A stretch of 64,000 nt of DNA, taken from contig CAVRET010000002.1 in NCBI GenBank assembly GCA_963720265.1, positions 136,704-200,703 on the forward strand. Direction: 5' to 3'. The notes beneath the pieces are model-generated. The model worked only from the letters and a program-made list of their open reading frames with translations, did not search any database and was not told the DNA's origin. The DNA comes from an uncultured bacterium (GTDB taxonomy: Bacteria > Patescibacteriota > Saccharimonadia > UBA4664). Shown here piece after piece: positions 10,299 through 58,789 of this stretch. Position 1 is the first letter of the stretch; every line of letters begins with the position of its first letter. A program made the translations under genes and the position numbers.

Positions 10299-10375
10299 TG
10301 GTGGGTCCTAGAGGACTCGAACCTCTGACCTCTTCCACGTCAAGGAAGCGCTCTAACCAACTGAGCTAAGAACCC
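10299..10375 (-). tRNA. tRNA-Val (anticodon GAC)
   Basis: Reverse complement GGGTTCT-TA-GCTC-AGTTGGTTA-GAGC-G-CTTCC-TTGACGT-GGAAG-AGGTC-AGAGG-TTCGAGT-CCTCT-AGGACCC-A-CCA. Confidence 0.85.
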
Positions 10376-34984: not shown

Positions 34985-35032
34985 GTAAAGCGGCCTTGAT
35001 TACTCAAGGCCGCCGGGCTTGGCGGCTCCACA
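34985..35032. repeat. Direct repeat, copy 1 (about 48 nt, contains perfect hairpin GCGGCCTTGA-TTAC-TCAAGGCCGC); left boundary of the TA/IS island
   Basis: AAAGCGGCCTTGATTACTCAAGGCCGCCGGGCTTGGCGGCTCCACAAG is about 81% identical to copy 2 at 38066-38113. The hairpin is identical in both. Confidence 0.45.
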
Positions 35033-35152: not shown

Positions 35153-35599
35153 TCAGGATGTGTCCCAACGCTTCGCCTCGTCCTCAAGCACCCTAAGCAA
35201 ATCAGCGACCACCACCTCAAGGCCCTCCTGTTGCTCTGCATCGCGCATTGCTTCGTCCAAACCGTCCCAGTACCCCTCAAAGTTGCCTCCGTCTCGGCGG
35301 ACGAGTGCCATTTGTACCATGAGACCAATCTGCGTTCGTGCAGAATCACCGCCGGATCTCTGACTCTCAAGAACCACTTGCTCACCTAGCAGCTGGTAGC
35401 GCGTAAGAAGCTCAGTTACTCCGGCTCCAGAAAGCATGGCATCGACCACCTGACGGCGCAGCTCGGCCAGTTCTTTGGTCTCCGCATAACCAAGCGCCTC
35501 AGGAAGCCTATCGATCTCAGGCTTTGGTTCCATCTCAACACTCCAATCAAGGCGCGATGCCTCTGAAGATCCTAGGTCTGGAGAAGGTTCAGACTCCAT
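35153..35599 (-). CDS. Acidic hypothetical protein (148 aa)
   Basis: Glu/Asp/Leu-rich helical ORF inside the island. No motif recognised. Confidence 0.3.
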   Translation of the reverse strand: MESEPSPDLGSSEASRLDWSVEMEPKPEIDRLPEALGYAETKELAELRRQVVDAMLSGAGVTELLTRYQLLGEQVVLESQRSGGDSARTQIGLMVQMALVRRDGGNFEGYWDGLDEAMRDAEQQEGLEVVVADLLRVLEDEAKRWDTS

Positions 35600-35701
35600 G
35601 GCCTAATAATACGTTATCCGTACAACGGCGCCAGTCGACTCCATCAACGGTTGGCAATCTCTCAAAAAATGCCTCGTAAAGGCTATAAATAGATCCTTGA
35701 C

Positions 35702-35752
35702 GGGAGCTAGCGAACGATTTTCGAATTATTTTGACTTAATGAAAGTCAAATC
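35702..35752 (+). repeat. Island repeat R1 (conserved core GAACGATTTTCGAAyTrTTTTGrCTTA plus a copy-specific hairpin)
   Basis: GGGAGCTAGCGAACGATTTTCGAATTATTTTGACTTAATGAAAGTCAA. The hairpin is TTGACTT/AAGTCAA. It abuts the IS982 left inverted repeat. Confidence 0.45.
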
Positions 35753-36671
35753 GTACCCCCTGAATCTAAAAACCTAGCCAACTAGAAAACGAGCGGGCGC
35801 ATACTGTTTCTTGTAAGAGAAAACAAACATGCAACCACTCGCTCTCGAATCACATCATATCGTGGATTTATTTGTCGTCATAGACGACGCCGTAGCAGAA
35901 CCGACCCGGCCGCAGGGTGGCCGGCCAAAACTTGTTCGTGATTCAGAAATCATTACCCTTTTAATCTGGAATTGTATATCGGATACGCGTCAGCGTACCC
36001 TTAAATCCATCTTTCATTGGGCCTTGTTGTACCACCGTCGTGACGTGCCCAGGCTCGGTACATATGGGGCTTTTGTGGCCCATTGCCACCGTCTTTTGCC
36101 TCAACTTCTCGAGCTTTTGGGGCAGATGCTGGTTCCAGCCGAGATCCAGCTAGTAGATTCAACCAGGCTGCCGGTGTGCCGTAACCACCGGGCCGACAGT
36201 TACAAAGTGGCAGCCGGTCTGGCGGGCTGGGGTAAAAACTGGCAGGGCTTTTGGTTTGGATTTAAGTTGCACGCGGCGGTGGACGTGGAAGGGTGGCTTT
36301 CGGCCGTGACCTTTACTCCAGCTGACGTCTACGACGGTCATGTGACGCCCGGGCTGGTACGGCCCGAAACTAAAATTGTAGTGGGCGACAGCCATTACGG
36401 CGACAAAATCGCCCGGGAAAAGCTTTGGCGCGAGCATGGTGTAGTGGTTGTAGCACCGGTTCATTACCGGCAAGTTTCTCGAATTATGGCTTCGTGGCAA
36501 CAAAAACTTCTTGCTGCACGAGTCAAAGTCGAATGCACATTTGACTACTTAAAAGAACATCTGAACTTAGTTAGTTCATTCCCGCGGAGCAAAAACGGCT
36601 ATCTGCTCCATTACGTCAGGATTTTGCTGGGCTACCAGATGGGACGGGGTTTTTAGATTCAGGGGTACCAA
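35753..36671 (+). mobile_element. IS982-family (IS4/IS5 superfamily) insertion sequence, apparently intact
   Basis: 21-22 bp terminal inverted repeats GTACCCCCTGAATCTAAAAACC (35753-35775) and GGTTTTTAGATTCAGGGGTACC (36650-36671) flank one DDE transposase ORF. Confidence 0.65.
35829..36656 (+). CDS. IS982-family DDE transposase
   Basis: 275 aa with a candidate DDE triad (DSTRLPVC ... VGDSHY ... ECTFDYLKEH) and an N-terminal FVVIDDAV. Confidence 0.7.
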   Translation: MQPLALESHHIVDLFVVIDDAVAEPTRPQGGRPKLVRDSEIITLLIWNCISDTRQRTLKSIFHWALLYHRRDVPRLGTYGAFVAHCHRLLPQLLELLGQMLVPAEIQLVDSTRLPVCRNHRADSYKVAAGLAGWGKNWQGFWFGFKLHAAVDVEGWLSAVTFTPADVYDGHVTPGLVRPETKIVVGDSHYGDKIAREKLWREHGVVVVAPVHYRQVSRIMASWQQKLLAARVKVECTFDYLKEHLNLVSSFPRSKNGYLLHYVRILLGYQMGRGF

Positions 36672-36710
36672 GTTGACATCGATTAGAAATGTGACTACAA
36701 TGTAATCACT

Positions 36711-36941
36711 ATGAAGGCATCGATTGTCACAATTGGTAATTCCAAAGGAATTCGAATACCTAAGCCACTACTGGAAGAGAGCGGACTTAAAGATAAAGTC
36801 GAAATCACCGCAGTTAAAGGCGAGATAAAAATCGTACCCCTCAAGGAACCAGTCGATCTTAGTTCAGCATTACTCGCCGAAGCAGCTTTAGGTGATTGGA
36901 ACAAGCCAGAAGAGAATGACGCGTGGGCGAATTTGCGGTAA
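36711..36941 (+). CDS. mazE: MazE/PemI (AbrB/SpoVT-fold) antitoxin
   Basis: ASIVTIGNSKGIRIPKPLLEESGL is a swapped-hairpin barrel DNA-binding motif. 76 aa. It overlaps the downstream toxin gene by 19 nt. Confidence 0.65.
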   Translation: MKASIVTIGNSKGIRIPKPLLEESGLKDKVEITAVKGEIKIVPLKEPVDLSSALLAEAALGDWNKPEENDAWANLR

Positions 36942-37252
36942 ACGAAGTCGTTTTAGTAATGTTCTCCTTCTCGAATCTCAAGGGACAAAAACTCAGACCC
37001 GCTCTTGTCGTTGCAAAAGCAGAATTTGGCGACTTGATTCTTTGCCAAATAACTTCGAAACCGTACTCAAGCAAAATCGCCATAGAATTGAACGCGAACG
37101 ATTTCGGCGATGGCCAATTGCCAATTACAAGTTATATCAGACCAGACAAACTATTCACTGCAGACCGAACCATTATTGCCAGCAAGGCAGGAACGGTTTC
37201 GGACGACAAATCAGCGAGGGTCACAGAAGCAATCCTCAATCTCTTTGCCTAG
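36923..37252 (+). CDS. mazF: MazF/PemK-family endoribonuclease toxin
   Basis: VVLVMFSFSNLKGQKLRPALVVAK ... ITSK matches the PemK/MazF signature. 109 aa. Confidence 0.7.
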   Translation: MGEFAVNEVVLVMFSFSNLKGQKLRPALVVAKAEFGDLILCQITSKPYSSKIAIELNANDFGDGQLPITSYIRPDKLFTADRTIIASKAGTVSDDKSARVTEAILNLFA

Positions 37253-37295
37253 AACGATTTTCGAACTATTTTGGCTTAAAGTAGACCAAACTGAC
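37243..37295 (+). repeat. Island repeat R2 (overlaps the mazF stop)
   Basis: TTGCCTAGAACGATTTTCGAACTATTTTGGCTTAAAGTAGACCAAA. The hairpin is TTTGG/CCAAA. Confidence 0.45.
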
Positions 37296-37304
37296 GCCAG
37301 TCGC

Positions 37305-37694
37305 TTATTTCGTAGAATCTAAAGTCGTCACTAAGCCAGATGCCAGACTAAGCAAAGGCTGATCTGACGTCATAACCTGCCATTTCTTTAGTTTAGCCAA
37401 GCCTACCAAAGCACAATCAAACGGATCAGAGTGATCAATCTCTACGCTCATCATGCTTGTAAGTTCATCCGCAAAGGGCCTATAGGCCTCTACCCCAAAA
37501 CGATCCAAAAATTCGCTTACCGGAGCATTAATCTCTAATTTTCGAATACGACGCTTAAGTTCAATTTCGAAAAGGGTCAACAAGCTGACAACTAATTCTT
37601 CATCTGCCGAGGCTAGGGTTTGCCTTGATTTTGGACCAAGGCGAGAATCCCCTACCATCCACCAAATCAACACATTGGCGTCAATTAGAATCAA
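37305..37694 (-). CDS. vapC: VapC PIN-domain toxin
   Basis: MILIDANVLIWW ... DPFD. 129 aa. Confidence 0.75.
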   Translation of the reverse strand: MILIDANVLIWWMVGDSRLGPKSRQTLASADEELVVSLLTLFEIELKRRIRKLEINAPVSEFLDRFGVEAYRPFADELTSMMSVEIDHSDPFDCALVGLAKLKKWQVMTSDQPLLSLASGLVTTLDSTK

Positions 37695-37700
37695 TTAAAC

Positions 37701-37949
37701 CTAGCTCTCACCTAACAACGCTTTGGCGACTAACTCATCCGTAGCTTTGCTAAATGCATCATTAGCAACTGATACTTTATCGCTCCAAGCTCCAAAAGCA
37801 TGAGCGCGATCAATTCTCTTCTCGGGCACTTTTGTTATCTTGTACTGCGCCTTCCCACGTGCACCAAAAACGACCTGCTCACCCTGATCGACTTTATTGA
37901 GCAGTTTAGACATATGTGTCTTCGTCTCGTGGATTGACAGAACTTTCAT
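37701..37949 (-). CDS. Phd/YefM-family antitoxin (VapB-like) partner of VapC
   Basis: MKVLSIHETKTHMSKLLNKVDQGEQVVFGARGKAQYKI matches the Phd/YefM N-terminal pattern. It ends 6 nt before the vapC start. Confidence 0.6.
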   Translation of the reverse strand: MKVLSIHETKTHMSKLLNKVDQGEQVVFGARGKAQYKITKVPEKRIDRAHAFGAWSDKVSVANDAFSKATDELVAKALLGES

Positions 37950-38029
37950 ATTTCTTAGTCTAATAGGCTAAGAATCCGCAGTCAATCGTTGTCACGCCCG
38001 CGCATCTCATAAAACACTCAGGGCTTCAC

Positions 38030-38082
38030 AGAAGTGAACAATTTTCGAACTGTTTTGGCTTAATTAAAGCAAAAGCGGCCTT
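38030..38082 (+). repeat. Island repeat R3
   Basis: CAGAAGTGAACAATTTTCGAACTGTTTTGGCTTAATTAAAGCAAAAGC. The hairpin is TTTTGGCTT/AAGCAAAA. It shares the upstream CACAGAAG with R2. Confidence 0.45.
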
Positions 38083-38113
38083 GATAACTCAAGGCCGCTG
38101 GGGCTATCAGCTC
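38066..38113. repeat. Direct repeat, copy 2 (hairpin GCGGCCTTGA-TAAC-TCAAGGCCGC); right boundary of the TA/IS island
   Basis: AAAGCGGCCTTGATAACTCAAGGCCGCTGGGGCTATCAGCTCCACCAG. See copy 1. Confidence 0.45.
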
Positions 38114-38169
38114 CACCAGACTGACTCACCCAATCTTCCAGTACAGCCCGAGCACTGACTGCTCACGCC

Positions 38170-38448
38170 TCTAATTGAGATCGGCGCGCAGCGTGTAATG
38201 AAAGACTACTCGATGCGTTCCCTCTCCGGCAGGCTCGATCGTGGGTGGATCGAAGTGCATGTGCTTCAAGATCTTAGCGTCCCCATCTATGAAGCCTTGG
38301 CCACCAGTCCCACTCGCGTCGGGCTATCGGCGGGCTCGTAGAGGGGCTTGAGATCTCCCATGCCAGCAAACTCGTCCACGATAAAGATAAAAGTGATCGA
38401 CGTGGGAGTCTCCTCGATGGAGGCGCTCAAAATGTTCATTGCCACTCC
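38170..38448 (-). pseudogene. Frameshifted remnant of an unknown gene
   Basis: Two adjacent minus-strand frames each contain a short stop-free stretch: MNILSASIEETPTSITFIFIVDEFAGMGDLKPLYEPADSPT... and ...GGQGFIDGDAKILKHMHFDPPTIEPAGEGTHRVVFHYTLRADLN. They overlap out of frame, and no ORF of 60 aa or more is present. Confidence 0.3.
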
Positions 38449-38517
38449 TGGTCCACTGAAAGACGCATCACCTGATACGCCCTTAAAATTATAACATAAA
38501 TTTTAGTATAAGTCCAA

Positions 38518-38575
38518 TGGCGGGAACTAGCGAACGATTTTCGAACTGTTTTGGCTTGAGAAAAGCCATATTCGC
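38518..38575 (+). repeat. Island repeat R4
   Basis: GGGAACTAGCGAACGATTTTCGAACTGTTTTGGCTTGAGAAAAGCCA. The hairpin is TGGCTT/AAGCCA. Its 5' part is nearly identical to R1. Confidence 0.45.
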
Positions 38576-38682
38576 ACAAATTCCCAAATAAGCCCTGACG
38601 GGGGCTACGCTCGTGCTTTAATTATGGCCCCCCAGATGGTATAAAGCTATAGTCCTCGCAACTTCAACAACCAGGAGGTACC

Positions 38683-39378
38683 GTGCGAAGGCCTGGCCTA
38701 GCAGTGGCAACCGCACTTCTTGCAGCCTCGCTGCTCGCCGTCGGCTGTAGTAGTCCCAGCAGTTCAACAGCAGACGCTCACAGCACCAGCAATACGAACT
38801 CAACGAGCACTGGCATAACGGTCAACAACGGGCCGACAGTCTCAACCATGAAGCCGGGTAAGCGGTTTACGGCCGTACCCGACTTCAGCGACTTTCAGGG
38901 TTGCGGGCGGCCATGCTGGCTGCCACTTTACGCTCAGCCGTGGGAGACGCCGCCGGCCGTAACCCACGGCTGGCCCTGTGAGTACTATGACCCGACGAGC
39001 TCAGACAACGGGCCGTACTGCCTGCACCCGCCAGCAAACCGGTCCAGGAACCAGATGGGCGACTCATCAGACCCCAACTCTGGCGACCGCGTGCTAGTGC
39101 TCTGCCAGACTACGACCCTGCCCAACGGGAGGCCAGCGCAAACGATTCGCAACGAAGCCGGCCAAGAGTCCGATGTCTGGGACAAGATAGCAGTGCCTAC
39201 GACTTTTATCGCGCCACTGAATCCGCCTATGGCGCTCATGCAAGTACCGGGCACCGAAGGTTACTTCTACGAAGCCTACGCGCCGGATATCTGGCTATTG
39301 AACAGCAGCATGAACACAAGCACCGGTCGGGCAAGTCTGCGGGTGCATAACATCCCCTGCAGCCAAGATGGTAGCTGA
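38683..39378 (+). CDS. Lipoprotein (hypothetical, Pro/Trp-rich)
   Basis: GTG start after AGGAGG. The signal peptide has a lipobox (LLAASLLAVGC-SS). Upstream TATAAA is a -10-like element. Confidence 0.5.
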   Translation: MRRPGLAVATALLAASLLAVGCSSPSSSTADAHSTSNTNSTSTGITVNNGPTVSTMKPGKRFTAVPDFSDFQGCGRPCWLPLYAQPWETPPAVTHGWPCEYYDPTSSDNGPYCLHPPANRSRNQMGDSSDPNSGDRVLVLCQTTTLPNGRPAQTIRNEAGQESDVWDKIAVPTTFIAPLNPPMALMQVPGTEGYFYEAYAPDIWLLNSSMNTSTGRASLRVHNIPCSQDGS

Positions 39379-39614: not shown

Positions 39615-39691
39615 TGGCGGGCTCGACCGGATTCGAACCGGCGATCTCCTCCGTGACAGGGAGGCGTGTTAGGCCTCTACACTACGAGCCC
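39615..39691 (-). tRNA. tRNA-Asp (anticodon GTC)
   Basis: Reverse complement GGGCTCG-TA-GTGTAGAGG...CCTCC-CTGTCAC-GGAGG...CCGG-TTCGAAT-CCGG-TCGAGCCC-G-CCA. Confidence 0.85.
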
Positions 39692-42072: not shown

Positions 42073-42148
42073 GCCCCGGTAGCTCAGCGGATAGAGCGTC
42101 TCCGTCCTAAGGAGAGCGTCGGGGGTTCGATTCCCTCCCGGGGCACCA
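42073..42148 (+). tRNA. tRNA-Arg (anticodon CCT)
   Basis: GCCCCGG-TA-GCTC-AGCGGATA-GAGC-G-TCTCC-GTCCTAA-GGAGA-GCGTC-GGGGG-TTCGATT-CCCTC-CCGGGGC-A-CCA. Confidence 0.85.
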
Positions 42149-43739
42149 ATGAAGCTTCTTCAGAACTACCGTCTAATAAAATAGGCTTAAGAGAAGCATT
42201 CCCATTGCCCGCACCGGCCGCCACCAGTTGGCGGCTTTTGGTTCGCATCACCGTAATCGTCTTAAACGGCTCCATGAGTACTGCTTCAGTAACGCCGCTT
42301 GGCACGTCCACCAGTACCCGCTCAAACAGGGCCTGGTTCATGCGCCGCCTTAGCATATCCGGAGCTAGCCGGTAGAAGCGGTCACAATCCTTCAACAGAT
42401 CGAGGGCCACTTGCAGTAAGCCTTCAACATCGGAAAACTGCTTCCGGGCACCTGCTAGTAGCCCTTCCGCTTGCTCTGACTCATGGTTAATACGCGACTG
42501 CTCTTCGGCTAACACATCTAGCTCAAGAGCGCCTGCATAATACGCCTGGAGCAATTTGGAGCGCTCCAGTTTGAGTTTACGCAACTTCTCGGCCTGGATA
42601 CGTTCGTCACGCTCATTTACTTCCTGGCGGCTTGTGAGCTGAACACGGATCTGTTCCTTTATCGCGCTAGCCTCGTCTTCGCTCAGCTTTAGCGTCCGGT
42701 AGTGCTCAACCAAGCTTTGTTCCGCATCTTCGGCCGCCACATATGGCAAGTCACACTCATGGCGATGCGGTCTAGCTGCGCAGAAGTAGTACAGGTACGT
42801 TTCCTTCTTTGCACTCGCTATACACATTCGTGACCCACACCGACCGCAATACAGAGTGCTTTTCAGATAGTGATTATGTCTGCGCTGCTTCTCGCCAGCC
42901 GACCGCGATTGCAATACCTGCTGCACTCGATTGAACAGCTCTTTCGGTACCAGCGGTTCATGCCGACCTTCGTACTCAACACCGCGATAGGTAATGACTC
43001 CGCAATAGTAGGCATTGTGCAGCAACTTTGCCAACACCTGGTGCCGTAGCACACGTCCATCAGTGCGCTTGCTACTGCGAGGTAATAGTCCTCGCGCGGT
43101 CATAATCTCGGCTAACTGTATTAATGAGTACTCGCCAGTGGCATACATCTCAAAGGCCAACTTCACCAATGGCGCCCTATGAGGGTCCACCACTACTGTG
43201 CGCACATCATGACCATCCACGGTAGCACTGGTATTAATATAGCCAACTGGCGCCAAAGTGAGTGTGCCACCGCTCTTGGCCTTTTGTGTCATGCCCTTTA
43301 TCACTTCGGTGGCCAAGTTCCCGGAGTAGAATTCGGCTATGGTCGCCATTATCCCATGGAGCAATCTTCCTGAGGGAGTGGCATCGATGTTCTCGGTCGC
43401 CGAAACTAACTGCGCCCCTGCTGCTCGAATGGCTAGGTTGATCGAAAAATCGTCATCCCGGTTCCGGGCCAGTCGATCCACCTTGTGAACCAGAACGTAG
43501 TCGATATCCTTATCTGCTTTGAGTTTGGCCAACATATCTTTGAGCCGTGGCCGGTCTGCAGATCGCGCCGATTCGCCACGGTCAATGTATTCGGCCACCA
43601 CCTCTGCACCAAGGCTATCAGCCTTGCGTCGGCAAGCCTCGCGTTGGGCCGGAATTGAATAGCCTTCCGGATCTTGATCTTTTTGAGCTTGTTCGAGCGT
43701 CGAAACGCGTAAGTAAATAACAGCTTTCTTCATAGGCAT
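42084..43739 (-). CDS. Large serine recombinase (resolvase catalytic domain + recombinase domain + zinc ribbon); the C-terminal ORF tail overlaps tRNA-Arg antisense
   Basis: The N-terminus AVIYLRVSTLEQAQKD...SIPAQREA...DRLARN is a serine-recombinase catalytic domain. A recombinase middle domain and LYCGRCGSRMC zinc ribbon follow. The last ~20 codons (REGIEPPTLSLGRRRSIR) are an antisense translation of the tRNA. Confidence 0.8.
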   Translation of the reverse strand: MPMKKAVIYLRVSTLEQAQKDQDPEGYSIPAQREACRRKADSLGAEVVAEYIDRGESARSADRPRLKDMLAKLKADKDIDYVLVHKVDRLARNRDDDFSINLAIRAAGAQLVSATENIDATPSGRLLHGIMATIAEFYSGNLATEVIKGMTQKAKSGGTLTLAPVGYINTSATVDGHDVRTVVVDPHRAPLVKLAFEMYATGEYSLIQLAEIMTARGLLPRSSKRTDGRVLRHQVLAKLLHNAYYCGVITYRGVEYEGRHEPLVPKELFNRVQQVLQSRSAGEKQRRHNHYLKSTLYCGRCGSRMCIASAKKETYLYYFCAARPHRHECDLPYVAAEDAEQSLVEHYRTLKLSEDEASAIKEQIRVQLTSRQEVNERDERIQAEKLRKLKLERSKLLQAYYAGALELDVLAEEQSRINHESEQAEGLLAGARKQFSDVEGLLQVALDLLKDCDRFYRLAPDMLRRRMNQALFERVLVDVPSGVTEAVLMEPFKTITVMRTKSRQLVAAGAGNGNASLKPILLDGSSEEASLVPREGIEPPTLSLGRRRSIR

Positions 43740-43826
43740 GTCCTCCCGATTAATGGATCAGGAGAGGATACCAGATCTGAAGCCGATGGAAAGAGGCGTT
43801 CTACAGATATAGCCTATAATGGAACC

Positions 43827-44078
43827 ATGAATTCTATCGATATTAGAATCTGGCCATCAGTGAGCCGTTACCCCAAGGGAGGTTGGGAACACGCCTATAC
43901 ACTGCCAGATGGCGGCAAAGGAGGTGGCGGTCATAGGAACGTAACTTTAGATCAGGCCAAATCACTTATCTCGACTACGCTCGCAGAAATGGGCTACGCG
44001 GACTATCAGCTCAACTTTATCGTTGGCGACATGGTATTTACGCCTCTAGGCGAGCACGATGATTCAGACTCTGCTTAA
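43827..44078 (+). CDS. Hypothetical protein (83 aa)
   Basis: TATAAT-like -10 at 43819-43824 and an ATG at 43827. No motif recognised. Confidence 0.3.
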   Translation: MNSIDIRIWPSVSRYPKGGWEHAYTLPDGGKGGGGHRNVTLDQAKSLISTTLAEMGYADYQLNFIVGDMVFTPLGEHDDSDSA

Positions 44079-44849
44079 CACCTCCATTACATGCTCAATC
44101 AGCTCAACCTGGAAGATACGCCGATGGTGAATTGGCAGGCGCTGGACGAGCTGGTCGATTACTGCCTTGCGGCTGTCATCTGGAACAAGAAATAGTACCT
44201 TCGGAAATACCCCGGTCTGATGCTGTTCGCGGCCTCTAGCCCAATACTTTGTGTAAGCATCAAGCTTTTGCCTCAGTTGTGGCCTGCGCTCGGTGCCCAA
44301 GTCCATCTCGATAAACCAGTAATAGGCATATTGACCAATATGCGTCTTCACATTAGCGTCCGGCCGCAGGAGCTGGCGCCCATAGACACCAACGTCCCGC
44401 CGAGGCTCAACTTGAAACGATTTAACGGTTAGCTTGTCTTCGCGCTCCAGCTCCTTTAGCCCCACGTATAACTCGGTAACGGCCAAAGCGTGACCGATAT
44501 ACTGCTCACCTGGGAGTTTCGGCGTCCTCACGGGTGATGTCCCACGACTCAGCAAGGCAATTGCCGGACGTGCCAGGGTAAGCACCATGCTAGCTGACCC
44601 GGCTCGTACACCCCCAACTTGTCGTGGTAAGCGAGTGATTATCCGTTGATCTGCCAATCGTTTAAGGATTCGAGCTGCCACACGTGTGTTACCAAGAGGG
44701 GTACCATCATATACATGAACTCGTTGTATCTGTCGGCTTGTAGCAAATCGTACTCGTAGTAGCGTCTTCAAAACTGCCAAATCACGTTCACTGAGCTCAT
44801 ATGCGTGCCTGTCTACGTAGGCGGTTATAGTACAGGATGTCATATACAT
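44064..44849 (-). CDS. Replication-relaxation family protein (plasmid/ICE-type)
   Basis: 261 aa. The N-terminal winged-helix LSERDLAVLKTLLRVRFATSRQIQRV and overall pattern resemble the Replic_Relax family of actinomycete integrative elements. The assignment is from pattern memory and is tentative. Confidence 0.45.
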   Translation of the reverse strand: MYMTSCTITAYVDRHAYELSERDLAVLKTLLRVRFATSRQIQRVHVYDGTPLGNTRVAARILKRLADQRIITRLPRQVGGVRAGSASMVLTLARPAIALLSRGTSPVRTPKLPGEQYIGHALAVTELYVGLKELEREDKLTVKSFQVEPRRDVGVYGRQLLRPDANVKTHIGQYAYYWFIEMDLGTERRPQLRQKLDAYTKYWARGREQHQTGVFPKVLFLVPDDSRKAVIDQLVQRLPIHHRRIFQVELIEHVMEVLSRV

Positions 44850-45341
44850 TCCTGTATATAAGTCACACGCGTACCTTTGCGTCCGGCACGTCCCCCAAGC
44901 GATTCAGCTTGTCTTGTGGACCACACGATTTGAATAGCGGTGCGAGCACTAATTCTTACTGCATTTATCTTCATATTCTGGGTCCTCCGCTTACTGAACT
45001 GGAGAGGATACCAGATGTGGGCACAAAAAATACAAAATCGCCGCCGGTAAACACTAAATAATGGCTGTACGTACAGGCATTAGGTTCATCCGAGAACAAT
45101 TAATTAGATAATGGTACATTTTGAAGAAATCACCGGTGAGGCTATAATGACATTACGCAATGAAAGTGCTTATGGTACATCATAAGCAGAGTAAGTTACG
45201 ACAGAAGGGAAATAGAACGAACATTATGTCTAGTTCTGACTAGTATTACCCGAAGGTAAAGGGGCTGCGAACGCAGCCCCTTTAAATTGCTCACGGAATT
45301 TTATTGCTTTAGGCTATGGTATAGGAAAAGAGAGACAACGG

Positions 45342-46244
45342 ATGATGATGCCAGACTGGGAAGACGTGCTCAAGTTCTTTCGAGATGTTTTCACTACCGC
45401 GATAGTCGAAAAAATTCTTGGTGTGGCAATTGGTGCGCTTATTGGAGCAGCCCTAGGTGGAGCAACAGAACGTGGAATTGCCCCAGAAATCGGCGGCGCC
45501 ATAGGTGCGATAGTAGGCTTCGTAACCGCCATGCTTGTCGTTCGTTCAAGAATAAAGAACGCAAAAAAGCCACCACAGATCACACTCTATCAACATATTA
45601 TTCACAGCTATGATAGTGAGCACAAACTCCGACGTGTGCGTGAGAAAAGACGCGTTAAAAACATGACCTCCGACAACATGGAATCGGTACGCGTAGGAAT
45701 TGGACCAGTCGGCCCAGATCTTCCTATTTACGTATCTACCGACACGCAGAAAATAGATGCAGCAAGGCAAGCTAAGCGCCCATATGGCGTGATCATGGCG
45801 ATTGATAGCGGCACTATTAACTATCGCGAGCAAGACCGGGATCCCATGACGCACGATATCCTGTTCGATTTTAACTTCGACTACCCATTACCAGGTCACA
45901 AGCGCCAAGAGGAGCATTTCATTTTCGAAACAACTTACTACGGAGAGTCGCATTACTACAAGCGAAATTATGTAAGCATACGACCACGAACAACTAGAAA
46001 AAAGGCGAGATTTACACTTGAGTTCACGGCTGATTCTCGCCCTCGTGGAGGGGTAGTCTACCCAACCAAATGGCCGTCAGGCCATGACGCGGAGGCCAAT
46101 GGAGATCGTATTGCTCACAAAAAGAAGATGGTGGATAGTGATAACCGATTGCACTATCGTTGGCCAGGCTGGCTTCTTGGAAGCCCAAATAAGAAGATAA
46201 CGTACGGTTTGTCTTGGGATCCTCCAACATCTCGGTCAACCTAA
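45342..46244 (+). CDS. Hypothetical membrane-anchored protein (glycine-zipper TM region, 300 aa)
   Basis: GVAIGALIGAALGGATERGIAPEIGGAIGAIVGFVTAML is followed by a basic soluble domain. No motif recognised. Confidence 0.35.
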   Translation: MMMPDWEDVLKFFRDVFTTAIVEKILGVAIGALIGAALGGATERGIAPEIGGAIGAIVGFVTAMLVVRSRIKNAKKPPQITLYQHIIHSYDSEHKLRRVREKRRVKNMTSDNMESVRVGIGPVGPDLPIYVSTDTQKIDAARQAKRPYGVIMAIDSGTINYREQDRDPMTHDILFDFNFDYPLPGHKRQEEHFIFETTYYGESHYYKRNYVSIRPRTTRKKARFTLEFTADSRPRGGVVYPTKWPSGHDAEANGDRIAHKKKMVDSDNRLHYRWPGWLLGSPNKKITYGLSWDPPTSRST

Positions 46245-46251
46245 GATTGCA

Positions 46252-47745
46252 CTAGAAAACTTTGTAAGAGGCGGCGGCACGTTTGTTCTGGAGCCGAATG
46301 CTCACTTGATAGCCGTGTTTGTTAAACAGATACATCAATTGCTCGCCATTAATGAGTGTTAACGGCTTGTCTTTGGCAAAGTCTCGGGCTTCGGGACCGT
46401 AGTAGCTGGTCGTCACCAAGATTCCCTTAACCGCACCCTCATTGAGCACCGTACCGTATAAATCGCGCACTGCGCTAACTGGAACGAGGTTATTGTAGCG
46501 CTTAGCCTGAATAACGAACTTGCCACCACGTATTGGGTCTGGGTCGTAGGCAATAGCGTCGACGCCTTCGTCGCGCGACGCTTGCGTTACTTCGACTTTA
46601 GCCCCGTCATTTCCAAACTCGCGCTGGAACAAATCGCGCACTAAGATCTCAAACTGTTGCCAGTCCATACTGGCTAGGTTCTGCGAGTCATCCACCGAGT
46701 CAAGCACCGCACTGGCCTCAATAATCCGCTTATCACTGGTGTTCATCTGAAGGATAGGCTTAACCGGAGCCAAGTTCACCAGGTTGCCAGCCGATACTCC
46801 TTTGAGGTGCCGGAAACAGTCTCTCGGACTAATGTGATCAAGTTGGAGCTCTTCAAACTCACGCCTATTAACCTGCAAGCTCAGTACACAATTTCGGAAT
46901 GCCTTTCCGGTCTGCGGGTCGAATCCTGAAACGTAGCCATTGAAACCGACCGTCACGACCGCGTTGGCGTAATCGGCACTAAACACTTCATGTAATGTCC
47001 GTAAGGCTATTTGATATAAGGTCGAATTATAGAACTCCTCGAATTCGCGCTGCTTCATCTCTTTCGCAACAGAGGCATCCTTGCTCGGGGAGTAAGCGTA
47101 CTCAGTCACCCGTGGTACCCGATCGGTATTGGGTAGCTCCACCTCCACAAGCATGAGCTTACTTTGCGGCTCGTACTGCACTTGAGGAGCCAGACTTAGT
47201 GAAGACGGGTATTTTGACAGCACCAAGACGCGCTGGATGTACTTCAGGACTGCCGCAGGCGTCTTGCTCTCATAAGCGGCTTTCATCCTGTCGACTTTCT
47301 TGTTGTGCTCAACTTGCTCAGCGAGGTAAAGCTCCTTGTCTTTCTCGTAGGCCCTCTGAGCTTGGTCAAAGGCTTTCTTTGCTTCTTCTTCTGCAATCTG
47401 GTGCTTTGCTTTCATGCCAGGCACCAATCCCGAGAGCTTGGAAAAATGTGGCGCAAATTCGTCCCATTGAGGCGGCTTCTTGAACGATTCCTTATCGTAC
47501 AATTCATCCCAATTGAGCTTATTCTCGTGCAATAGCGCTGTGGCCAACAACTGCTGAAAGGCCGAGATGTCAGCTTGAGCATGCGTCGACATATTCTGGG
47601 ATTTTGCTCGACTTAGATCCTTTTCCCAACGCTTCTGCAACACCAAAAGCTTATTGGCAACCACCGCCTGGGTACTCCCAGTTACGGTTACCGTTTCACC
47701 AGTTACTGGATGAGTGACTGTTTTGTAGTAAGACATACGACTCAT
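46252..47745 (-). CDS. Fusion protein: about 330 aa domain of unknown function (coiled-coil-rich) + C-terminal Mrr-cat (PD-(D/E)xK) restriction-endonuclease-like domain
   Basis: C-terminus WQQFEILVRDLFQREFG...KVEVTQASRDEGVDAIAYDP...KFVIQAKRYNNLVPVSAVRDLYGTVLNEGAVKGILVTTSYYGPEAR follows the Mrr N-terminal catalytic-domain pattern (D...E.K in ..D..A....V.QAKRY). Confidence 0.55.
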   Translation of the reverse strand: MSRMSYYKTVTHPVTGETVTVTGSTQAVVANKLLVLQKRWEKDLSRAKSQNMSTHAQADISAFQQLLATALLHENKLNWDELYDKESFKKPPQWDEFAPHFSKLSGLVPGMKAKHQIAEEEAKKAFDQAQRAYEKDKELYLAEQVEHNKKVDRMKAAYESKTPAAVLKYIQRVLVLSKYPSSLSLAPQVQYEPQSKLMLVEVELPNTDRVPRVTEYAYSPSKDASVAKEMKQREFEEFYNSTLYQIALRTLHEVFSADYANAVVTVGFNGYVSGFDPQTGKAFRNCVLSLQVNRREFEELQLDHISPRDCFRHLKGVSAGNLVNLAPVKPILQMNTSDKRIIEASAVLDSVDDSQNLASMDWQQFEILVRDLFQREFGNDGAKVEVTQASRDEGVDAIAYDPDPIRGGKFVIQAKRYNNLVPVSAVRDLYGTVLNEGAVKGILVTTSYYGPEARDFAKDKPLTLINGEQLMYLFNKHGYQVSIRLQNKRAAASYKVF

Positions 47746-47801
47746 ATGATTACCTCACGGCTCATCATAGCAAAAATCATGCAAACGACCATAAGACCGA
47801 T

Positions 47802-48665
47802 CTACTTCACGAGCTTAATCTGTCTCGCATAATGATCAATCCAAGCAGGCATCTTGGGCTCGGCCTCGTGAAAGATGTAGTGTTTGACCTGCCTGGTTAT
47901 CTCCCACTGGTAGGCAAATACTGCCCGGCACGACCGGACCATGCCTTCAACGTCAGTTGAGCCGTCTATTGATACGTCAATCCGTTCTGGCGATTCCTTA
48001 ATTACTGAAGCCAATTCGATGGGATCAGCATGGCTGCCGCCAGAGAAGAACGGGTATAACCGATCGTATAGCCGCACCATCGTCATAGTTTTCTTGCCGA
48101 TCCGATGATACTTCTGATTATAAAAATCAATAATCTCGCAACGTTGCTTCAGGCTGAAGCCTTTAGTGCGTGTGACCGGTGTCGTCTTGGCGGGGTTTAT
48201 CACTTCCGGGATTGCATCCGGCCACTTTGGGTAATCGAGAGCCACGGTACTCTCGATGTCTAGTAGCCGATTCTTGTGTTTAGCAAAATCCTCATCGGAC
48301 ACGTGTCCGTCACTATGGAGGACGGCCAACATCTCGATTCGCTTCCGCTCGCTGGTCATAATCATATATTTGGCATAGACCAATGACCTACAGCAGTAGA
48401 TTAATCGGACATTGATCCAGATCTCGAACAACGTTCGCGCTAAGGTGTAGCTAACACGAAATTGCTTGCTGTCGGCTAAACTGGTTATCCCTTGGACTTG
48501 GGCAATCGCCGAGATAAATAGTGTTAGTAAATAGCCATCTCGACCTAGCGAGTAGACATCGATCTTGGCCTGTTCCATCTCTTTGAGGAGTACAAACCCG
48601 TAGCCATGAAGTTCCTTGAGGGCGTGGATAGCTTCAACAAGTTCACGCTCAGCATCGGTTTGCAC
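47802..48665 (-). CDS. Hypothetical protein (287 aa), middle gene of the accessory operon
   Basis: No recognisable motif. 15 nt gap to the upstream gene and 56 nt gap to the downstream gene, all on the same strand. Confidence 0.3.
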   Translation of the reverse strand: MQTDAERELVEAIHALKELHGYGFVLLKEMEQAKIDVYSLGRDGYLLTLFISAIAQVQGITSLADSKQFRVSYTLARTLFEIWINVRLIYCCRSLVYAKYMIMTSERKRIEMLAVLHSDGHVSDEDFAKHKNRLLDIESTVALDYPKWPDAIPEVINPAKTTPVTRTKGFSLKQRCEIIDFYNQKYHRIGKKTMTMVRLYDRLYPFFSGGSHADPIELASVIKESPERIDVSIDGSTDVEGMVRSCRAVFAYQWEITRQVKHYIFHEAEPKMPAWIDHYARQIKLVK

Positions 48666-48680
48666 GGCTCTGTCCCATCG

Positions 48681-50240
48681 CTAGTCTTTGGCCTTGGCGT
48701 CGGAGTCTGCCATCTCAATCAGGCGATCTGCGAAATGATTCCAGCTAATGTTATCTTCACCGACAGCGGTCTTTATCTTATTCGCCGTCGCGCGCAGTTG
48801 CTCCGGATCATCAGAGATCCATCCTAGCTTCTTAAGGAGCGCCACGGTCTGATCTTCCTGAGCCGCAGTCTTTTCGGCATATTGCTTTTCTGCCTCCTGC
48901 TCAGACCCGACTGGTGTCCACTCGGCGCCCACGCGGCTCACATGGCCAAACAGCCGCCATCGGCCAAGACCTTCTTTAAACACGGCAAAGTTAGGATTGG
49001 GATCAGCCAAGTATCCAGAGTACACCCACAGGATCACAAACTTTGCAAATAAGATCGTCTCGACATCCGGAAATAAGTCCTCAACAGTGGCCTGAACGGC
49101 CTGTTCGTTGATCTCGTTAGCATAGGCCCACAAATCCCGCACCCAAAAGAGGAACAGGTTGGCTACCGTTTTGGTAATTACCGGCCTCTCGTCCACACTG
49201 GCAACGGTTACCCGCCACTCGGCGGGGATCGCGTCCTTCAGCACATAACTGCTATCACCAGCCTTAAAGAATAGTGCCCGCATACCAGGCATCAGCAATT
49301 GGCCGATGCGGCCATCCTGGACCTTAGATAGTGGTATGGCTAACAAAACCTCACGTACGGCTTCGTCGTAGTTGTCTTCGGTAGTAAACCGTTCAATCAC
49401 AACCCGGACTACTTGGGTGGCGTGTACAAGATTACCGCCGGCATAGAATCGCTTATCAGCAAACAGCTTCTTCAGTCCACCGTCGTTCCAGCTGGCCCAG
49501 AGCGTGATTGCGTCGCACTTGCGCAAGAAGTTATACAGGATAACCCAGAATGTGTGCCTGGCCACGCCCGACTTCTTGTCCTCAGTTAGCGCCGTCATTG
49601 CCCAAGATAAGAGCTGCTTAAGCGTAGAATCTTCATCTAGCTGCAATGTCCACGGTCTAGACTCGGCTACGGAAGTGCCGTCTGACTTGGCATCGGAACT
49701 GGCAATCGTAGCGGTTACAAGCTCGCCCATGATGTCCCGTTCCGGCAATGCCGTTCCCGCGGGGCGTAGAGCTTTAAGATCGTAAACGTATATCGGCTTC
49801 TTATAGAACGATACCCAGATCACATAACCAAGAAGCCACAGCCCAAATATCAGATCTGCGTAGAAGAGTGCCGTGTGACGGCTGAAGAGCGGCAGGATGC
49901 ATGTCCCAAACAGAAAGACCACCAGGTTGCCAACTGGCTCATGGAGATACCGAAGGCGGTTCTCTCGAACCCACTCGTCGTCGAGAGGCGTCCGTTTAGC
50001 CAAATTGTGGGTCGCAAATTGCTGTCTCCAGATCTCAATGGCGATTGGGATGAACACGGCCATCACTGCCGTCGCCAACGCCAAGTAATCCACGATCTGG
50101 TCGGTGCCGATCTCAAAATGGTAACAGCCAGCACTGCCACAAACGGCCCGCCCAAACTGAACCATTAATGTATACAGAGCTACATCTGCAATCAGGGCTA
50201 GGAGCCACAAATACGGCCGCCTTTCTGGTTTCCGTTTCAT
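48681..50240 (-). CDS. Hypothetical membrane protein: 4 N-terminal TM helices + about 370 aa soluble domain
   Basis: Hydrophobic segments within the first about 150 residues. No motif recognised in the remainder. Confidence 0.35.
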   Translation of the reverse strand: MKRKPERRPYLWLLALIADVALYTLMVQFGRAVCGSAGCYHFEIGTDQIVDYLALATAVMAVFIPIAIEIWRQQFATHNLAKRTPLDDEWVRENRLRYLHEPVGNLVVFLFGTCILPLFSRHTALFYADLIFGLWLLGYVIWVSFYKKPIYVYDLKALRPAGTALPERDIMGELVTATIASSDAKSDGTSVAESRPWTLQLDEDSTLKQLLSWAMTALTEDKKSGVARHTFWVILYNFLRKCDAITLWASWNDGGLKKLFADKRFYAGGNLVHATQVVRVVIERFTTEDNYDEAVREVLLAIPLSKVQDGRIGQLLMPGMRALFFKAGDSSYVLKDAIPAEWRVTVASVDERPVITKTVANLFLFWVRDLWAYANEINEQAVQATVEDLFPDVETILFAKFVILWVYSGYLADPNPNFAVFKEGLGRWRLFGHVSRVGAEWTPVGSEQEAEKQYAEKTAAQEDQTVALLKKLGWISDDPEQLRATANKIKTAVGEDNISWNHFADRLIEMADSDAKAKD

Positions 50241-50300
50241 GCTTCCAGACTAGCACAATGAATCCTATCTGGTAACAGATAGCGATTAATTCAAGAGGCT

Positions 50301-50573
50301 TTAGCCCATAAAGCCAGCATCACGCAACCGCTTCGCCACAGTTTCGCGGTCAATACCAAACTGAAGCGCCAGAGTGTACGGAGCAATGCCGGACCGATAT
50401 GCCGCGATCAACTTATCCATATCCAGGTTCAGCAGCGCTGGGGAGCGTAGTGGCTTGCGCTTCGTGCCCTGTGTGACACAGCTCGCCGCCGTCAGTGCTG
50501 AAAGATCGTGGTGTAAGTGCTGGAGGCTCTCAAGCCTTAAATCCTCCTGAAGCTGACAGATCAGGCGCACCAA
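50301..50573 (-). CDS. Small resolvase-type HTH (HTH_7-like) DNA-binding protein, 90 aa
   Basis: MDKLIAAYRSGIAPYTLALQFGIDRETVAKRLRDAG resembles the C-terminal HTH of Hin/resolvase proteins. No catalytic domain. Confidence 0.45.
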   Translation of the reverse strand: MVRLICQLQEDLRLESLQHLHHDLSALTAASCVTQGTKRKPLRSPALLNLDMDKLIAAYRSGIAPYTLALQFGIDRETVAKRLRDAGFMG

Positions 50574-50578
50574 AAATT

Positions 50579-51172
50579 ATGAAGACCAGATTTTTACTCC
50601 ACGGCGGCAGGGTCAAACTTTCCGACGAGCGCAACGACCGGTTCTTTCGCGAGCTGGTGAAAGATCTTGCCGACGGTGACCAGGTGTTGTCGATCGGCTT
50701 TGCCCAACGCGACGAGACCGTCCGGCAGAAATACTTCGAACGGGACAAGGGCTTTCTTTTAGCGCAAACCAAAGCCGACATTAATGTTATCAATGCCACG
50801 TACGACGACTTTATTGAGCAAATTGGAGCCTCCAAGTCCGTCTACATCACCGGAGGAGACTGCCCAGAACTCGTAAAAAACATCCAGCGCTACCAAGATT
50901 TCGATTCTCTCCTGCGCGGCAAGGTAATTGGCGGAACTTCGGCCGGGGCATGTTTATTCGCAGCCTATTACCTAAATCTTCCCGAGCCCGAGGTCATGTC
51001 GGGCTTAAGCGTATTCCCAATCCGACTCATGGTCCATTATGGCAACTCTGAATTCAACTCAACAGACAAGACATTACAGGTTTTGCAGCATGCCCACCCT
51101 GAGCTAGAACTGCTTCGCCTTCGTGAGTGCGAAAGACACCCCCACGGAGCAAGCTCCGTGGTTGTCACTTAG
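50579..51172 (+). CDS. Peptidase S51 (PepE/cyanophycinase-like, class I glutamine-amidotransferase-like fold)
   Basis: Start reassigned to MKTRFLLHGG. VYITGGDCPELV and VIGGTSAGACLF (the Ser nucleophile motif GxSAG) are present. The 3' end runs into the IS200 terminal hairpin. Confidence 0.5.
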   Translation: MKTRFLLHGGRVKLSDERNDRFFRELVKDLADGDQVLSIGFAQRDETVRQKYFERDKGFLLAQTKADINVINATYDDFIEQIGASKSVYITGGDCPELVKNIQRYQDFDSLLRGKVIGGTSAGACLFAAYYLNLPEPEVMSGLSVFPIRLMVHYGNSEFNSTDKTLQVLQHAHPELELLRLRECERHPHGASSVVVT

Positions 51173-51705
51173 GGCACCAGCTTCAGTTGGTACGATTTGG
51201 CCTGAGTGGGTCGGTGCTTACCTTGTTGCTCAACATACGTCTTTATAACTCCTTCCAACGGACCGTCAGAGACGGTCCTAATGTAATAGCCGACACTCCA
51301 CATCGCACCGCCCCACAAGAACTGTTTGACTTCGGGAAACTGGACAAACAAGGCCCGTGCGCTCTTGCTTTTTAAGATCTGTACCAACTTCTCTGGCGCG
51401 ATTTTTGGATGAGCACCTATAAATACATGGACATGGTCGTCATCGGTGCCAACAGCTTCCAGCTCCCAGTCGTAAGCCTGGGCTATCTCGACAAGCACCC
51501 GCTTTAAGTATTGGCTGCGGTTGGCTAGCAGTACCTTGCGTCGAAGTTTGACACCCCATACCAAATGGTACCGAATCTGATACCGACAGTGGGCACCGAT
51601 TTGAACGTCCATACCACCATTGTGCTAATGAAAGACTGCTGTGTCCACCAGAGGCGGACAGGTGCTCGCCGGCGCTATCCCTCCCCGGAGCAAGCTCCGG
51701 GGTTC
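51136..51705. mobile_element. IS200/IS605-family element, intact
   Basis: Subterminal hairpins CCACGGAG-CAAGC-TCCGTGG (51141-51161) and CCCCGGAG-CAAGC-TCCGGGG (51683-51702) share the same loop and flank a full-length tnpA. Confidence 0.6.
51169..51612 (-). CDS. tnpA: IS200-family transposase TnpA (Y1 HUH)
   Basis: 147 aa with YHLVWGVKLRRKVL, the HUH motif HVHVFI, and a C-terminal catalytic Tyr region (WSVGYYIRTVSDG). Confidence 0.8.
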   Translation of the reverse strand: MDVQIGAHCRYQIRYHLVWGVKLRRKVLLANRSQYLKRVLVEIAQAYDWELEAVGTDDDHVHVFIGAHPKIAPEKLVQILKSKSARALFVQFPEVKQFLWGGAMWSVGYYIRTVSDGPLEGVIKTYVEQQGKHRPTQAKSYQLKLVP

Positions 51706-51764
51706 CTCGCGGGGTTAATGGATCGAAAAAACCGCCGAGATATAAGACCAACTATCTTGATGAA

Positions 51765-57868: not shown

Positions 57869-58789
57869 ATGGCCGAACTCCATCTCTCTGAACTTATCAC
57901 CGACTTTCTCGAGCACCTCGAGATCGAGCAAAATCGCTCGCAAAAAACCATTGCCAATTACGATCACTATCTCCAGCGCTTGGTTGAATTCACCGATGAT
58001 TGCGACATTGCGACACTCGATGCCGAAATGGTCCGCCAGTGGCGCCTCCACCTTAACCGCACCAAGGACGCCGCAGGCCGTGAGCTCACTAAGACCACCC
58101 AAAACTACCACCTCATAGCGCTCCGCAGCTTTCTCAAATACCTCACTAAGCGCGACATCAAAGCCCTCGACTCAGCCAAAATTGAGCTCGCTAAGGTGGC
58201 CAGGCCGCAAGTCACCTTTCTCACGTCCGAAGAAATCGACCGCCTGGTAGACGCCATCGACACATCCAACCCGATCGGCATGCGTGACCGCGCCCTCATC
58301 GAGCTGCTCTTTTCCGGTGGTCTGCGCGTCTCCGAACTCGTTGGCTTAAACCGCGACCACATCAACCTCGAGCGCCGCGAATTCGTGGTCCGCGGCAAAG
58401 GCCAGAAAGACCGCCCCATTTTCATTTCGCCCCGCGCCGCCGACTGGCTCGCCAGATATCTTGAAACCCGGCATGACACCGGGAGTCCGCTTTTCATCCA
58501 CTACTCCGGCACCAAAGACGAGCTCGAGGACGGCATGTACACTCGCCTCACCGCGAGAAGCGTCCAGCGCCTCGTCAATCGCTATGCCAAAGCCGCCGGC
58601 ATTACCAAAACCGTCACCCCCCACACCCTGCGCCACAGTTTTGCCACCGACCTACTCCAAAACGGCGCCGACCTCCGCAGTGTCCAGGGCCTCCTCGGCC
58701 ACGCCAACGTAGCGACTACGCAGATCTACACTCACGTCACCGACCCGCAGCTAAAAAGCGTTCATGAACGCTTCCACGCCAGCCACTAG
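57869..58789 (+). CDS. xerD: Tyrosine recombinase XerC/XerD family
   Basis: ARGKGQKDRPIF...HTLRHSFATDLLQNGADLRSVQGLLGHANVATTQIYTHV gives the catalytic R...HxxR...Y. Confidence 0.8.
   Translation: MAELHLSELITDFLEHLEIEQNRSQKTIANYDHYLQRLVEFTDDCDIATLDAEMVRQWRLHLNRTKDAAGRELTKTTQNYHLIALRSFLKYLTKRDIKALDSAKIELAKVARPQVTFLTSEEIDRLVDAIDTSNPIGMRDRALIELLFSGGLRVSELVGLNRDHINLERREFVVRGKGQKDRPIFISPRAADWLARYLETRHDTGSPLFIHYSGTKDELEDGMYTRLTARSVQRLVNRYAKAAGITKTVTPHTLRHSFATDLLQNGADLRSVQGLLGHANVATTQIYTHVTDPQLKSVHERFHASH

Follow-up and report, generated by a model that had tools for sequence, protein, structure and literature searches.

The 64,000-nt stretch of DNA analyzed here (hereafter the window; assembly GCA_963720265.1, contig CAVRET010000002.1, positions 136,704 to 200,703 of the forward strand), from an uncultured bacterium of the Saccharimonadia lineage UBA4664, contains a tRNA-Asp(GTC) gene followed by an array of small gene units, among which lie four copies of a short repeat, R1 to R4. 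A preliminary description of these letters had noticed the four copies and had likened them to the borders of recombination-delimited cassettes, but had missed their tie to the tRNA gene. The repeats are most informative when read on the minus strand, in the same direction as tRNA-Asp, and the features are listed from the tRNA outward:

39615-39691 and 39614-39563, minus strand: tRNA-Asp(GTC) gene and its type A trailer, respectively (ARAGORN; Rfam tRNA, 65.6 bits).
38683..39378, plus strand: cassette 1, nearest the tRNA, an open reading frame (ORF) for a 231-aa secreted Cys-rich protein, between the type A trailer of tRNA-Asp and R4.
38467..38588, minus strand: R4, long form (nhmmer E 1.6e-23; covariance model 81.2 bits; promoter scan).
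38130..38445, minus strand: cassette 2, a frameshifted pseudogene (three-frame translation) with its promoter in the R4 trailer, ending in terminator T1 at 38099-38074.
38020..38092, minus strand: R3, short form (hairpin and core), directly after that terminator (covariance model 65.9 bits).
37305..37985, minus strand: cassette 3, vapB (37701-37949) and vapC (37305-37694; PIN domain, E 4.5e-09; weak PhD/YefM match).
37239..37308, minus strand: R2, short form (hairpin and core; covariance model 63.6 bits).
36673..37252, plus strand: cassette 4, mazE (36711-36941) and mazF (36923-37252; Pfam MazE and PemK).
35753..36672, plus strand: IS982-like insertion sequence (IS) with a DDE transposase gene at 35829-36656 (Pfam DDE_Tnp_1_3, E 1.9e-23) and inverted ends GTACCCCCTGAATCTAAAAACC.
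35646..35757, minus strand: R1, long form, the copy farthest from tRNA-Asp (nhmmer E 2.9e-26; covariance model 76.7 bits; alignment; terminator scan).
34989..35014, minus strand: second copy of terminator T1, GGCGGCCTTGAGTAATCAAGGCCGCT (repeat search; terminator scan; blastn 77% over 69 nt).

The pattern GAACGATTTTCGAAyTrTTTTGrCTTA matched the 64 kb at 35712, 37252, 38036 and 38532, always on the plus strand and with 0-1 mismatches, while shuffles of the window gave 0 matches. A covariance model built from ten family members, namely R1 to R4 and six copies in the relatives L004, L010 and L019, found just R1 to R4 in the window (next-best E = 0.6, filters off), so that the four plus-strand copies first reported are real. 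Mean identity of the 26-nt core is 89% across the ten copies. The repeats also partition the island as previously described, into the IS982-like element with mazEF, vapBC, and the frameshifted pseudogene. The toxin-antitoxin (TA) part of the array, at 36.4-38.0 kb, has a GC content of about 44% against 55-60% in its surroundings, which was counted as a sign of foreign origin of the TA cassettes.

On the minus strand, a long repeat consists of a small hairpin, a core of about 33 nt (AAGCCAAAAyAGTTCkAAAATCGTTCGCTAGyT), the heptamer CCCGCCA, and about 65 nt homologous to the tRNA-Asp trailer. CCCGCCA makes up the last 7 nt of tRNA-Asp and ends no other tRNA in the window, and the core itself is not part of the tRNA-Asp locus. 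Two types of trailer can be distinguished: type A (AGTAyTTATTTAT, hairpin, T-run, AAATCGCCGAcCGAAC) carries a terminator, and type B (TTGsAmyTATA...) contains a promoter in R4 and L019. R1 runs from its hairpin (35751-35727) through the core and CCCGTCA (35704-35698) into a copy of the type A trailer of tRNA-Asp, with the terminator at 35683-35671. R4 runs through hairpin, core and CCCGCCA (38524-38518) into a type B trailer, which bears the promoter TGGACT-17-TATAAT (38516-38488) and matches the trailer after tRNA-Asp in L019 and L014. A profile of the repeats aligned to the true tRNA-Asp from the T-loop through about 65 nt of trailer (nhmmer E 1.5e-05 in the window, 2.1e-08 in L010). Likeness to the tRNA body is loose, covering 11 of 17 T-arm positions after a 5-nt gap at low posterior probability, and its exact part is the 7 nt of CCCGCCA; the solid homology of the long repeats to the tRNA locus is CCCGCCA plus trailer, and the trailer is clearly copied. 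By eye, GTTCG occurs twice in the core as a direct repeat, 11 nt apart, and this pair could share protein contacts with GGTTCG/GGTCG of the tRNA, which stand at about equal spacing. A similar trailer, (g)gAATTATTTAt, lies directly 3′ of the tRNA genes at 10299, 10588, 10956, 30860 and 39615, and its motif is also present in the type A trailer; it may be a processing or termination signal shared within this genome.

R2, R3 and the copy in L019 stop at GTTC/CTAG and lack CCCGCCA. At R2, which is also without a trailer, this end is overlapped by the stop codon TAG of mazF, and the same mazF-repeat junction is present in L019. The extended 5′ flanks reported for pairs of copies hold for R1 and R4 (TGrCGGGArCTAGC); CACAGAAG stands upstream in R2 and R3 too, yet its distance to the core differs, being 31 nt in R2 and 9 nt in R3. 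The CACAGAAG of R3 is read as a leftover of the mazF 3′ end with a 22-nt deletion, and its right flank CTTCTGTGA... reads as similar to a deleted mazF 3′ end. The short forms R2 and R3 are thus read as the junction of a mazEF-type cassette, of which mazF would be almost wholly deleted at R3.

Relatives were contigs around FMN reductase homologues, from sources labelled Saccharibacteria or Patescibacteria, and around one MazF homologue. In L010/L011/L012, whose FMN reductase is 89% identical, tRNA-Asp is followed by a 389-aa gene, a repeat, a GNAT acetyltransferase gene, a repeat, a pentapeptide protein gene, a third repeat and the following genes. L004/L005 contains a NUDIX gene flanked by two repeats (the L004 contig is 2.5 kb long, with no tRNA in view). 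L019 has the order tRNA-Asp, type B trailer, two genes, a T1-like terminator, a repeat and mazF, the stop codon of which overlaps CTAG as at R2. In relatives, the repeat family thus delimits other single-gene units. The tRNA-Asp gene at the island end is intact in the window and in L010 and likewise present in L019, where it is cut by the contig end; the repeats lie behind it in all three family genomes with the tRNA in view. Compared with L019, the window has an additional unit of type A trailer, 231-aa gene and core exactly at the junction of tRNA and type B trailer (cassette 1 is absent at the equivalent position of L019, and tRNA-Asp there directly precedes type B), and an additional vapBC unit bounded by R3 and R2. 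The different units in relatives, together with these two absences at repeat boundaries, support the original idea of recombination-delimited cassettes. By gene order only, contig P0020 has mazEF directly after FMN reductase, and contig P0242 has the order vapBC, a gap and mazE as in the window.

The family is present in four independent genomes (the window, L010, L004 and L019) and is confined to a sub-lineage. L014-L016, L017, L020 and L022 have tRNA-Asp with no repeats, and no other repeat family there beyond chance. The stretch from tRNA-Asp to tRNA-Thr/tRNA-Gly differs in both length and content among L020 (11600-17900), L022 (10700-14700) and L017 (10700-19000), which contain NUDIX, GNAT, HAD and small ORFs without the repeats; the tRNA-Asp region is a general hotspot in Saccharibacteria, also where repeats are absent. 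A collection of genome contigs gave 0 matches to the core pattern and no confirmed relatives by the PpiC protein. A strict-pattern search of metagenomes returned L004/L005 and matches inside birA (L003, L006), and a later search with the covariance model returned one inside a carboxylase gene of L006; the birA and carboxylase matches were judged to be chance. Because the strict pattern demanded TTTTCGAA, the variants of L010 and L019 (TTTTAGAA) escaped it. Searches of viral contigs gave chance matches or none, BLAST of R1 with its trailer against phage and plasmid collections gave no match, and in the literature on Saccharibacteria or Patescibacteria with integrons or tRNA islands nothing describing such repeats was found.

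Partners are exchanged around CCCGCCA. To its left stands either the tRNA body or the core, to its right trailer A or trailer B, and all four combinations occur:

tRNA body with trailer A: window, L010.
tRNA body with trailer B: L019, L014.
Core with trailer A: R1, L10a, L10b, L4a, L4b.
Core with trailer B: R4.

The tRNA with trailer B and the core with trailer A have only CCCGCCA in common. Because seven shared bases are too few for RecA, these reciprocal products are best explained by site-specific exchange rather than by RecA-type recombination. Between the window and L010, the 40-nt stretch of core and CCCGCCA is 90-92% identical, compared with 79% for FMN reductase coding DNA, 60% for the adjoining spacer and 71% for the trailer; therefore the core is either under selection or exchanged between genomes. 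The hairpins are too alike among copies to place the crossover of the vapBC event.

Going by consensus scans, the cassettes appear self-expressed; both orientations are represented. Promoter-like sites precede three of the four window cassettes, and terminator-like sites follow two and are found in the R1 trailer. Cassette 1 encodes a protein with no Pfam or NCBIfam match. Cassette 2 reads as one gene of about 110 codons broken by a frameshift, with no family match. In cassette 3 a promoter (TTGACT-17-TAGACT, 37985-37957) stands after R3. Cassette 4 is inverted relative to the array, with the promoter TTGACA-17-TACAAT at 36673-36701, and its DNA is 85% identical in L019, repeat junction included. 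The strong T1 terminator (GCGGCCTTGAGTwATCAAGGCCGC and a T-run) occurs twice on the minus strand, at 34989-35014 and 38074-38099. The second copy follows a 148-aa gene (35153-35599) located after R1 and marks the far end of the array, adjoining a Tag glycosylase gene. By eye, T1-related sequences precede the repeat in L019 and L010, and T1 looks like a conserved right-end module of the cassettes.

The IS982-like element sits just upstream of the R1 hairpin, having inserted secondarily between mazE and R1, and does not belong to the repeat. Its inverted ends (35737-35774 and 36648-36685) are clear over about 22 nt, with a weaker likeness of 14/22 continuing outward into the R1 hairpin, and the -35 box TTGACA of the mazEF promoter (36673) begins immediately outside its right end, the IS ends being approximate. 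The transposase had no record under its exact sequence, and for this reason the ends are not defined from other copies.

The preliminary description had also seen, next to each core, a hairpin whose arms covary. Next to the core, a small stem is possible in each of R1 to R4. In single-strand folding, R1 (-6.7 kcal/mol, z -3.9) and R4 (-5.8, z -2.6) alone are more stable than shuffles, whereas R2 (z -1.3) and R3 (z -0.1) are not, and three copies in a relative barely fold. In the ten-copy alignment, 76% of cells are paired against 74% in column shuffles, 55 of 500 of which reach an equally high value, so that the alleged compensatory changes and a conserved structure are without statistical support. 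The central pairs are broken in 4-5 of the ten copies, a two-sided change is present in just two cells, and among the window copies R1 alone has a true double change (G-C to A-T). RNAalifold returned no consensus pair for the family alignment. The 5′ arm of the R3 hairpin is the T-run of the preceding terminator. The conserved feature of the repeats is the core sequence, not a structure, and the case cautions that small "covarying" hairpins in four copies can vanish when copies are added. A tRNA-like fold was considered as well, in which GGGAATT at the 5′ end of R4 would pair acceptor-like with AGTTCCC; this pairing is not kept in other copies and was set aside. ARAGORN, under default and relaxed settings, called no tRNA in six copies and gave for R4 alone a spurious call under mitochondrial settings, and Rfam at E up to 10 matched the real tRNA-Asp and nothing in the repeats.

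Upstream of tRNA-Asp lie genes for FMN reductase and a PpiC-type isomerase. The sole tyrosine recombinase in the 64 kb is of Xer type (57869-58789), 18 kb from the array, and is called housekeeping. It scores far below the integron-integrase cut-offs (145 vs 265 bits and 91 vs 435 bits), in agreement with the earlier statement that no integron integrase is nearby, passes the NCBIfam cut-off for archaeal XerA (233 vs 220 bits), and stays below those for XerC and XerD, a hint that it may be a single-Xer system. An integrase-family gene occupies the syntenic place in L017, a locus without repeats. An insertion of about 9.5 kb (42073-51760), between tRNA-Arg(CCT) and the NDK gene, is absent in L010, L017, L020 and L022. 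Its genes encode a large serine recombinase of 551 aa (42084-43739; weakly CcrB/CcrC/XisF-like), together with a Replic_Relax protein, an Mrr-type endonuclease, a DUF5677 protein and an S51 peptidase. The serine recombinase ORF extends 65 nt into tRNA-Arg on the opposite strand, with the same layout in L018, and the far end of this element showed no partial tRNA-Arg repeat. An IS200/IS605 transposase gene (51169-51612, minus strand; within 51143-51702) lies between two near-identical direct hairpins, CCACGGAGCAAGCTCCGTGG (about 51143) and CCCCGGAGCAAGCTCCGGGG (about 51683).

Given these observations, it is reasonable to suggest, with a probability of roughly 0.6, that the repeats are attachment (att)-type junctions, made by site-specific recombination, in an array of integrase-less cassettes for which tRNA-Asp is the anchor. 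Direct observations are the anatomy of the repeats and its conservation, their position behind the tRNA, the variety of cargo, and the occurrence of left and right partners in all four pairings; from these we infer a crossover, a circular intermediate and an enzyme. A circular cassette would carry one site, consisting of core, CCCGCCA and trailer, and a recombinase acting in trans would cross this site with the tRNA-Asp end at CCCGCCA, giving the tRNA with the new trailer, then the cargo, then the core with the old trailer. New cassettes would enter beside the tRNA and push older ones outward, which fits the finding that L10c, the L010 copy farthest from the tRNA, is the most decayed; the stretch between any two sites could be excised as a circle. 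Each cassette would hold a single gene or operon, in either orientation and equipped with its own promoter and terminator.

Several points weigh against this reading. No recombinase is encoded in or beside the array, none was found in L010 within 10 kb upstream of the tRNA or about 5 kb downstream (a 15.6-kb contig), and none of the recombinases of the window could be tied to the repeats. Neither a circular form nor an identical cassette in two array positions was seen, and the family is in only four independent genomes. R2, R3 and the L019 copy, being without CCCGCCA, need a second explanation, and presence or absence between direct repeats could also arise by deletion between them. Behind the type B trailer, L019 and the window carry different genes, between which tblastx gave no match, and for this reason the comparison of the two rests on trailer, terminator and gene order.

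In another account, the tRNA-Asp 3′ region would have been duplicated passively to give the repeats: a module of about 120-170 nt (terminator, hairpin, core, CCCGCCA, trailer) would have spread through unequal crossing-over and through homologous recombination involving DNA taken up from relatives, with no dedicated site-specific system. The trailer homology of about 65 nt in the long repeats is enough for RecA, there is no nearby integrase, and the vapBC difference between L019 and the window is equally explained by deletion between direct repeats. Yet the best conserved part is the core, which lies outside the tRNA-Asp locus, the reciprocal joints with trailers A and B exist despite the sharing of just CCCGCCA, and it is left unexplained how unrelated genes of differing GC each gained a repeat, so that we consider such duplication unlikely, though the least so of the alternatives. 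It is improbable that the family is an RNA or transcription signal, such as a 3′-untranslated-region element, a small RNA end, a terminator or a tRNA 3′-end mimic (CCA) processed like a tRNA. The repeats are intergenic, and the long forms end, on the minus strand, in ...CCCGCCA followed by a tRNA-like trailer and terminator; against this stand the negative Rfam and ARAGORN results and the missing consensus structure and covariation. Nor do the repeats act as the terminators once proposed, since on one strand an A-run comes after their own hairpin and on the other a T-run comes before it, so that it could not terminate on either, and the real terminators adjoin the repeats. A terminator stands just before R3, and apparently before the L019 copy and L10a, which would keep read-through there low, and a consensus scan found no promoter in front of the repeats.

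Mobile-element ends fare worse still. R1 abuts the IS982-like element, the inverted repeat of which is weakly similar into the R1 hairpin, and an IS200 transposase lies in the window, so the repeats could be a left-end extension of the former or hairpin ends of IS200/IS605 type or of a miniature derivative. However, in the sequence read an IS982-like element adjoins just one of the ten copies, and neither the other three of the window nor the six in relatives, which speaks against the core as the IS982 terminal sequence; the 3′ arm of the R1 hairpin is homologous to that of R3 and belongs to the repeat; the IS200 copy has its own hairpins (CCrCGGAGCAAGCTCCGkGG), unrelated to the core repeats; and the window copies occur only behind tRNA-Asp. 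This origin is therefore very improbable. The slimmest chance goes to attC sites of a classical integron with the integrase elsewhere in the genome, a likeness that the preliminary description had drawn. Single-gene cassettes with integron-typical cargo (TA pairs, GNAT, NUDIX) and sites all in the same direction would suit it, but the aligned copies show neither a long imperfect palindrome nor GTTRRRY/RYYYAAC boxes, and sequence is kept while structure is not, the reverse of attC. The cassettes seem to have their own promoters and terminators, at odds with the promoterless cassettes of integrons, the anchor is a tRNA 3′ end and not an attI next to intI, and no integron integrase was recognized in the window, the tyrosine recombinase of which is far from the required scores.

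Site-specific assembly, as proposed for the array, has counterparts among known systems. Cis-mobilizable elements (CIMEs) of the ICESt1/ICESt3 family arise where integration targets a gene at its 3′ end and integrase-less remnants keep their att sites; newcomers at the same site create arrays between direct att repeats, which can be mobilized in trans by an integrase (PMC5704250). The present array likewise lies at a target 3′ end, with integrase-less units between att-type repeats. Unlike CIMEs, which are decayed integrative and conjugative or integrative and mobilizable elements of many kb, its units measure 0.5-1.5 kb with one gene or operon, none of about 12 cassettes seen here has integration or transfer genes, and the target end is not what the repeat copies, since 7 tRNA nt are exact and a separate core of about 33 nt is the conserved part. 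In tycheposon islands of Prochlorococcus, a full tRNA stands near the end, partial-tRNA repeats of about 40 nt separate tandem elements or remnants, and newcomers, with their own tyrosine recombinases and replication modules, push older elements inward (10.1101/2020.12.28.424599). A tRNA-anchored variable island, tandem units and a small, streamlined host genome are shared with them, whereas the elements here lack recombinases, and their repeats take 7 nt and the trailer from the tRNA locus.

In integrons, IntI is encoded beside attI and the cassettes are mostly promoterless, being expressed from the promoter Pc, and attC sites are imperfect palindromes of 57-141 nt with R′′/L′′-L′/R′ boxes, kept in structure and not in sequence. 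The array is integron-like in its row of single-gene, invertible cassettes, including TA pairs, with sites in the same orientation, one fixed entry and GNAT/NUDIX/TA cargo, and differs in that no IntI lies beside it, its sites are conserved in sequence, expression signals are its own and entry is at a tRNA 3′ end. Composite islands of the staphylococcal cassette chromosome (SCC) at rlmH consist of tandem cassettes, many without a recombinase and moved in trans by the large serine recombinases Ccr. They resemble the array in their tandem, often recombinase-less cassettes at the 3′ end of a housekeeping gene, with short direct repeats; unlike here, those repeats duplicate about 15-20 nt of the rlmH end and the units measure many kb, and the Ccr-like serine recombinase of the window belongs to the tRNA-Arg element, no link of which to the repeats was found. 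Plasmid pdif modules of Acinetobacter, bounded by 28-nt dif-like sites (11-6-11) in alternating orientation, and integrative mobile elements exploiting Xer (IMEX) at dif are integrase-less modules, often TA pairs, between short conserved recombination sites and are moved by the host recombinase. In contrast to these, the core has no dif-like dyad by eye, all sites are direct, and cumulative GC skew is monotonic through the locus, with no switch. By analogy, the layout would correspond to tandem accretion at a tRNA gene, with cassettes integron-like in size and cargo; three features set it apart from classic tRNA islands: repeats made up mostly of a non-tRNA core, uniformly tiny units, and the lack of an integrase in all of them.

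Our results raise, tentatively, the possibility of an undescribed, integron-like capture of cassettes in Saccharibacteria, in which the tRNA-Asp 3′ end would be the entry site, the core of about 33 nt with CCCGCCA the cassette site, and a recombinase encoded elsewhere (XerA-like, serine or new) would move self-expressed single-gene cassettes in and out, with TA, GNAT, NUDIX and secreted proteins as cargo. Saccharibacteria have genomes of about 1 Mb; to our knowledge, descriptions of mobile elements in them are few, and the gain and loss of their accessory genes are poorly understood. The tRNA-Asp hotspot, with its recognizable junction sequence, provides a concrete handle on the cassette pool, on excision circles and on the recombinase, and even if the capture system were not confirmed, the array would still illustrate clearly how units accrete in tandem behind a tRNA gene. 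A confirmed system would give the candidate phyla radiation a sequence-specific counterpart of integrons, with the integrase acting in trans, and would be a route of gene flux in the ultra-small genomes of these episymbionts.

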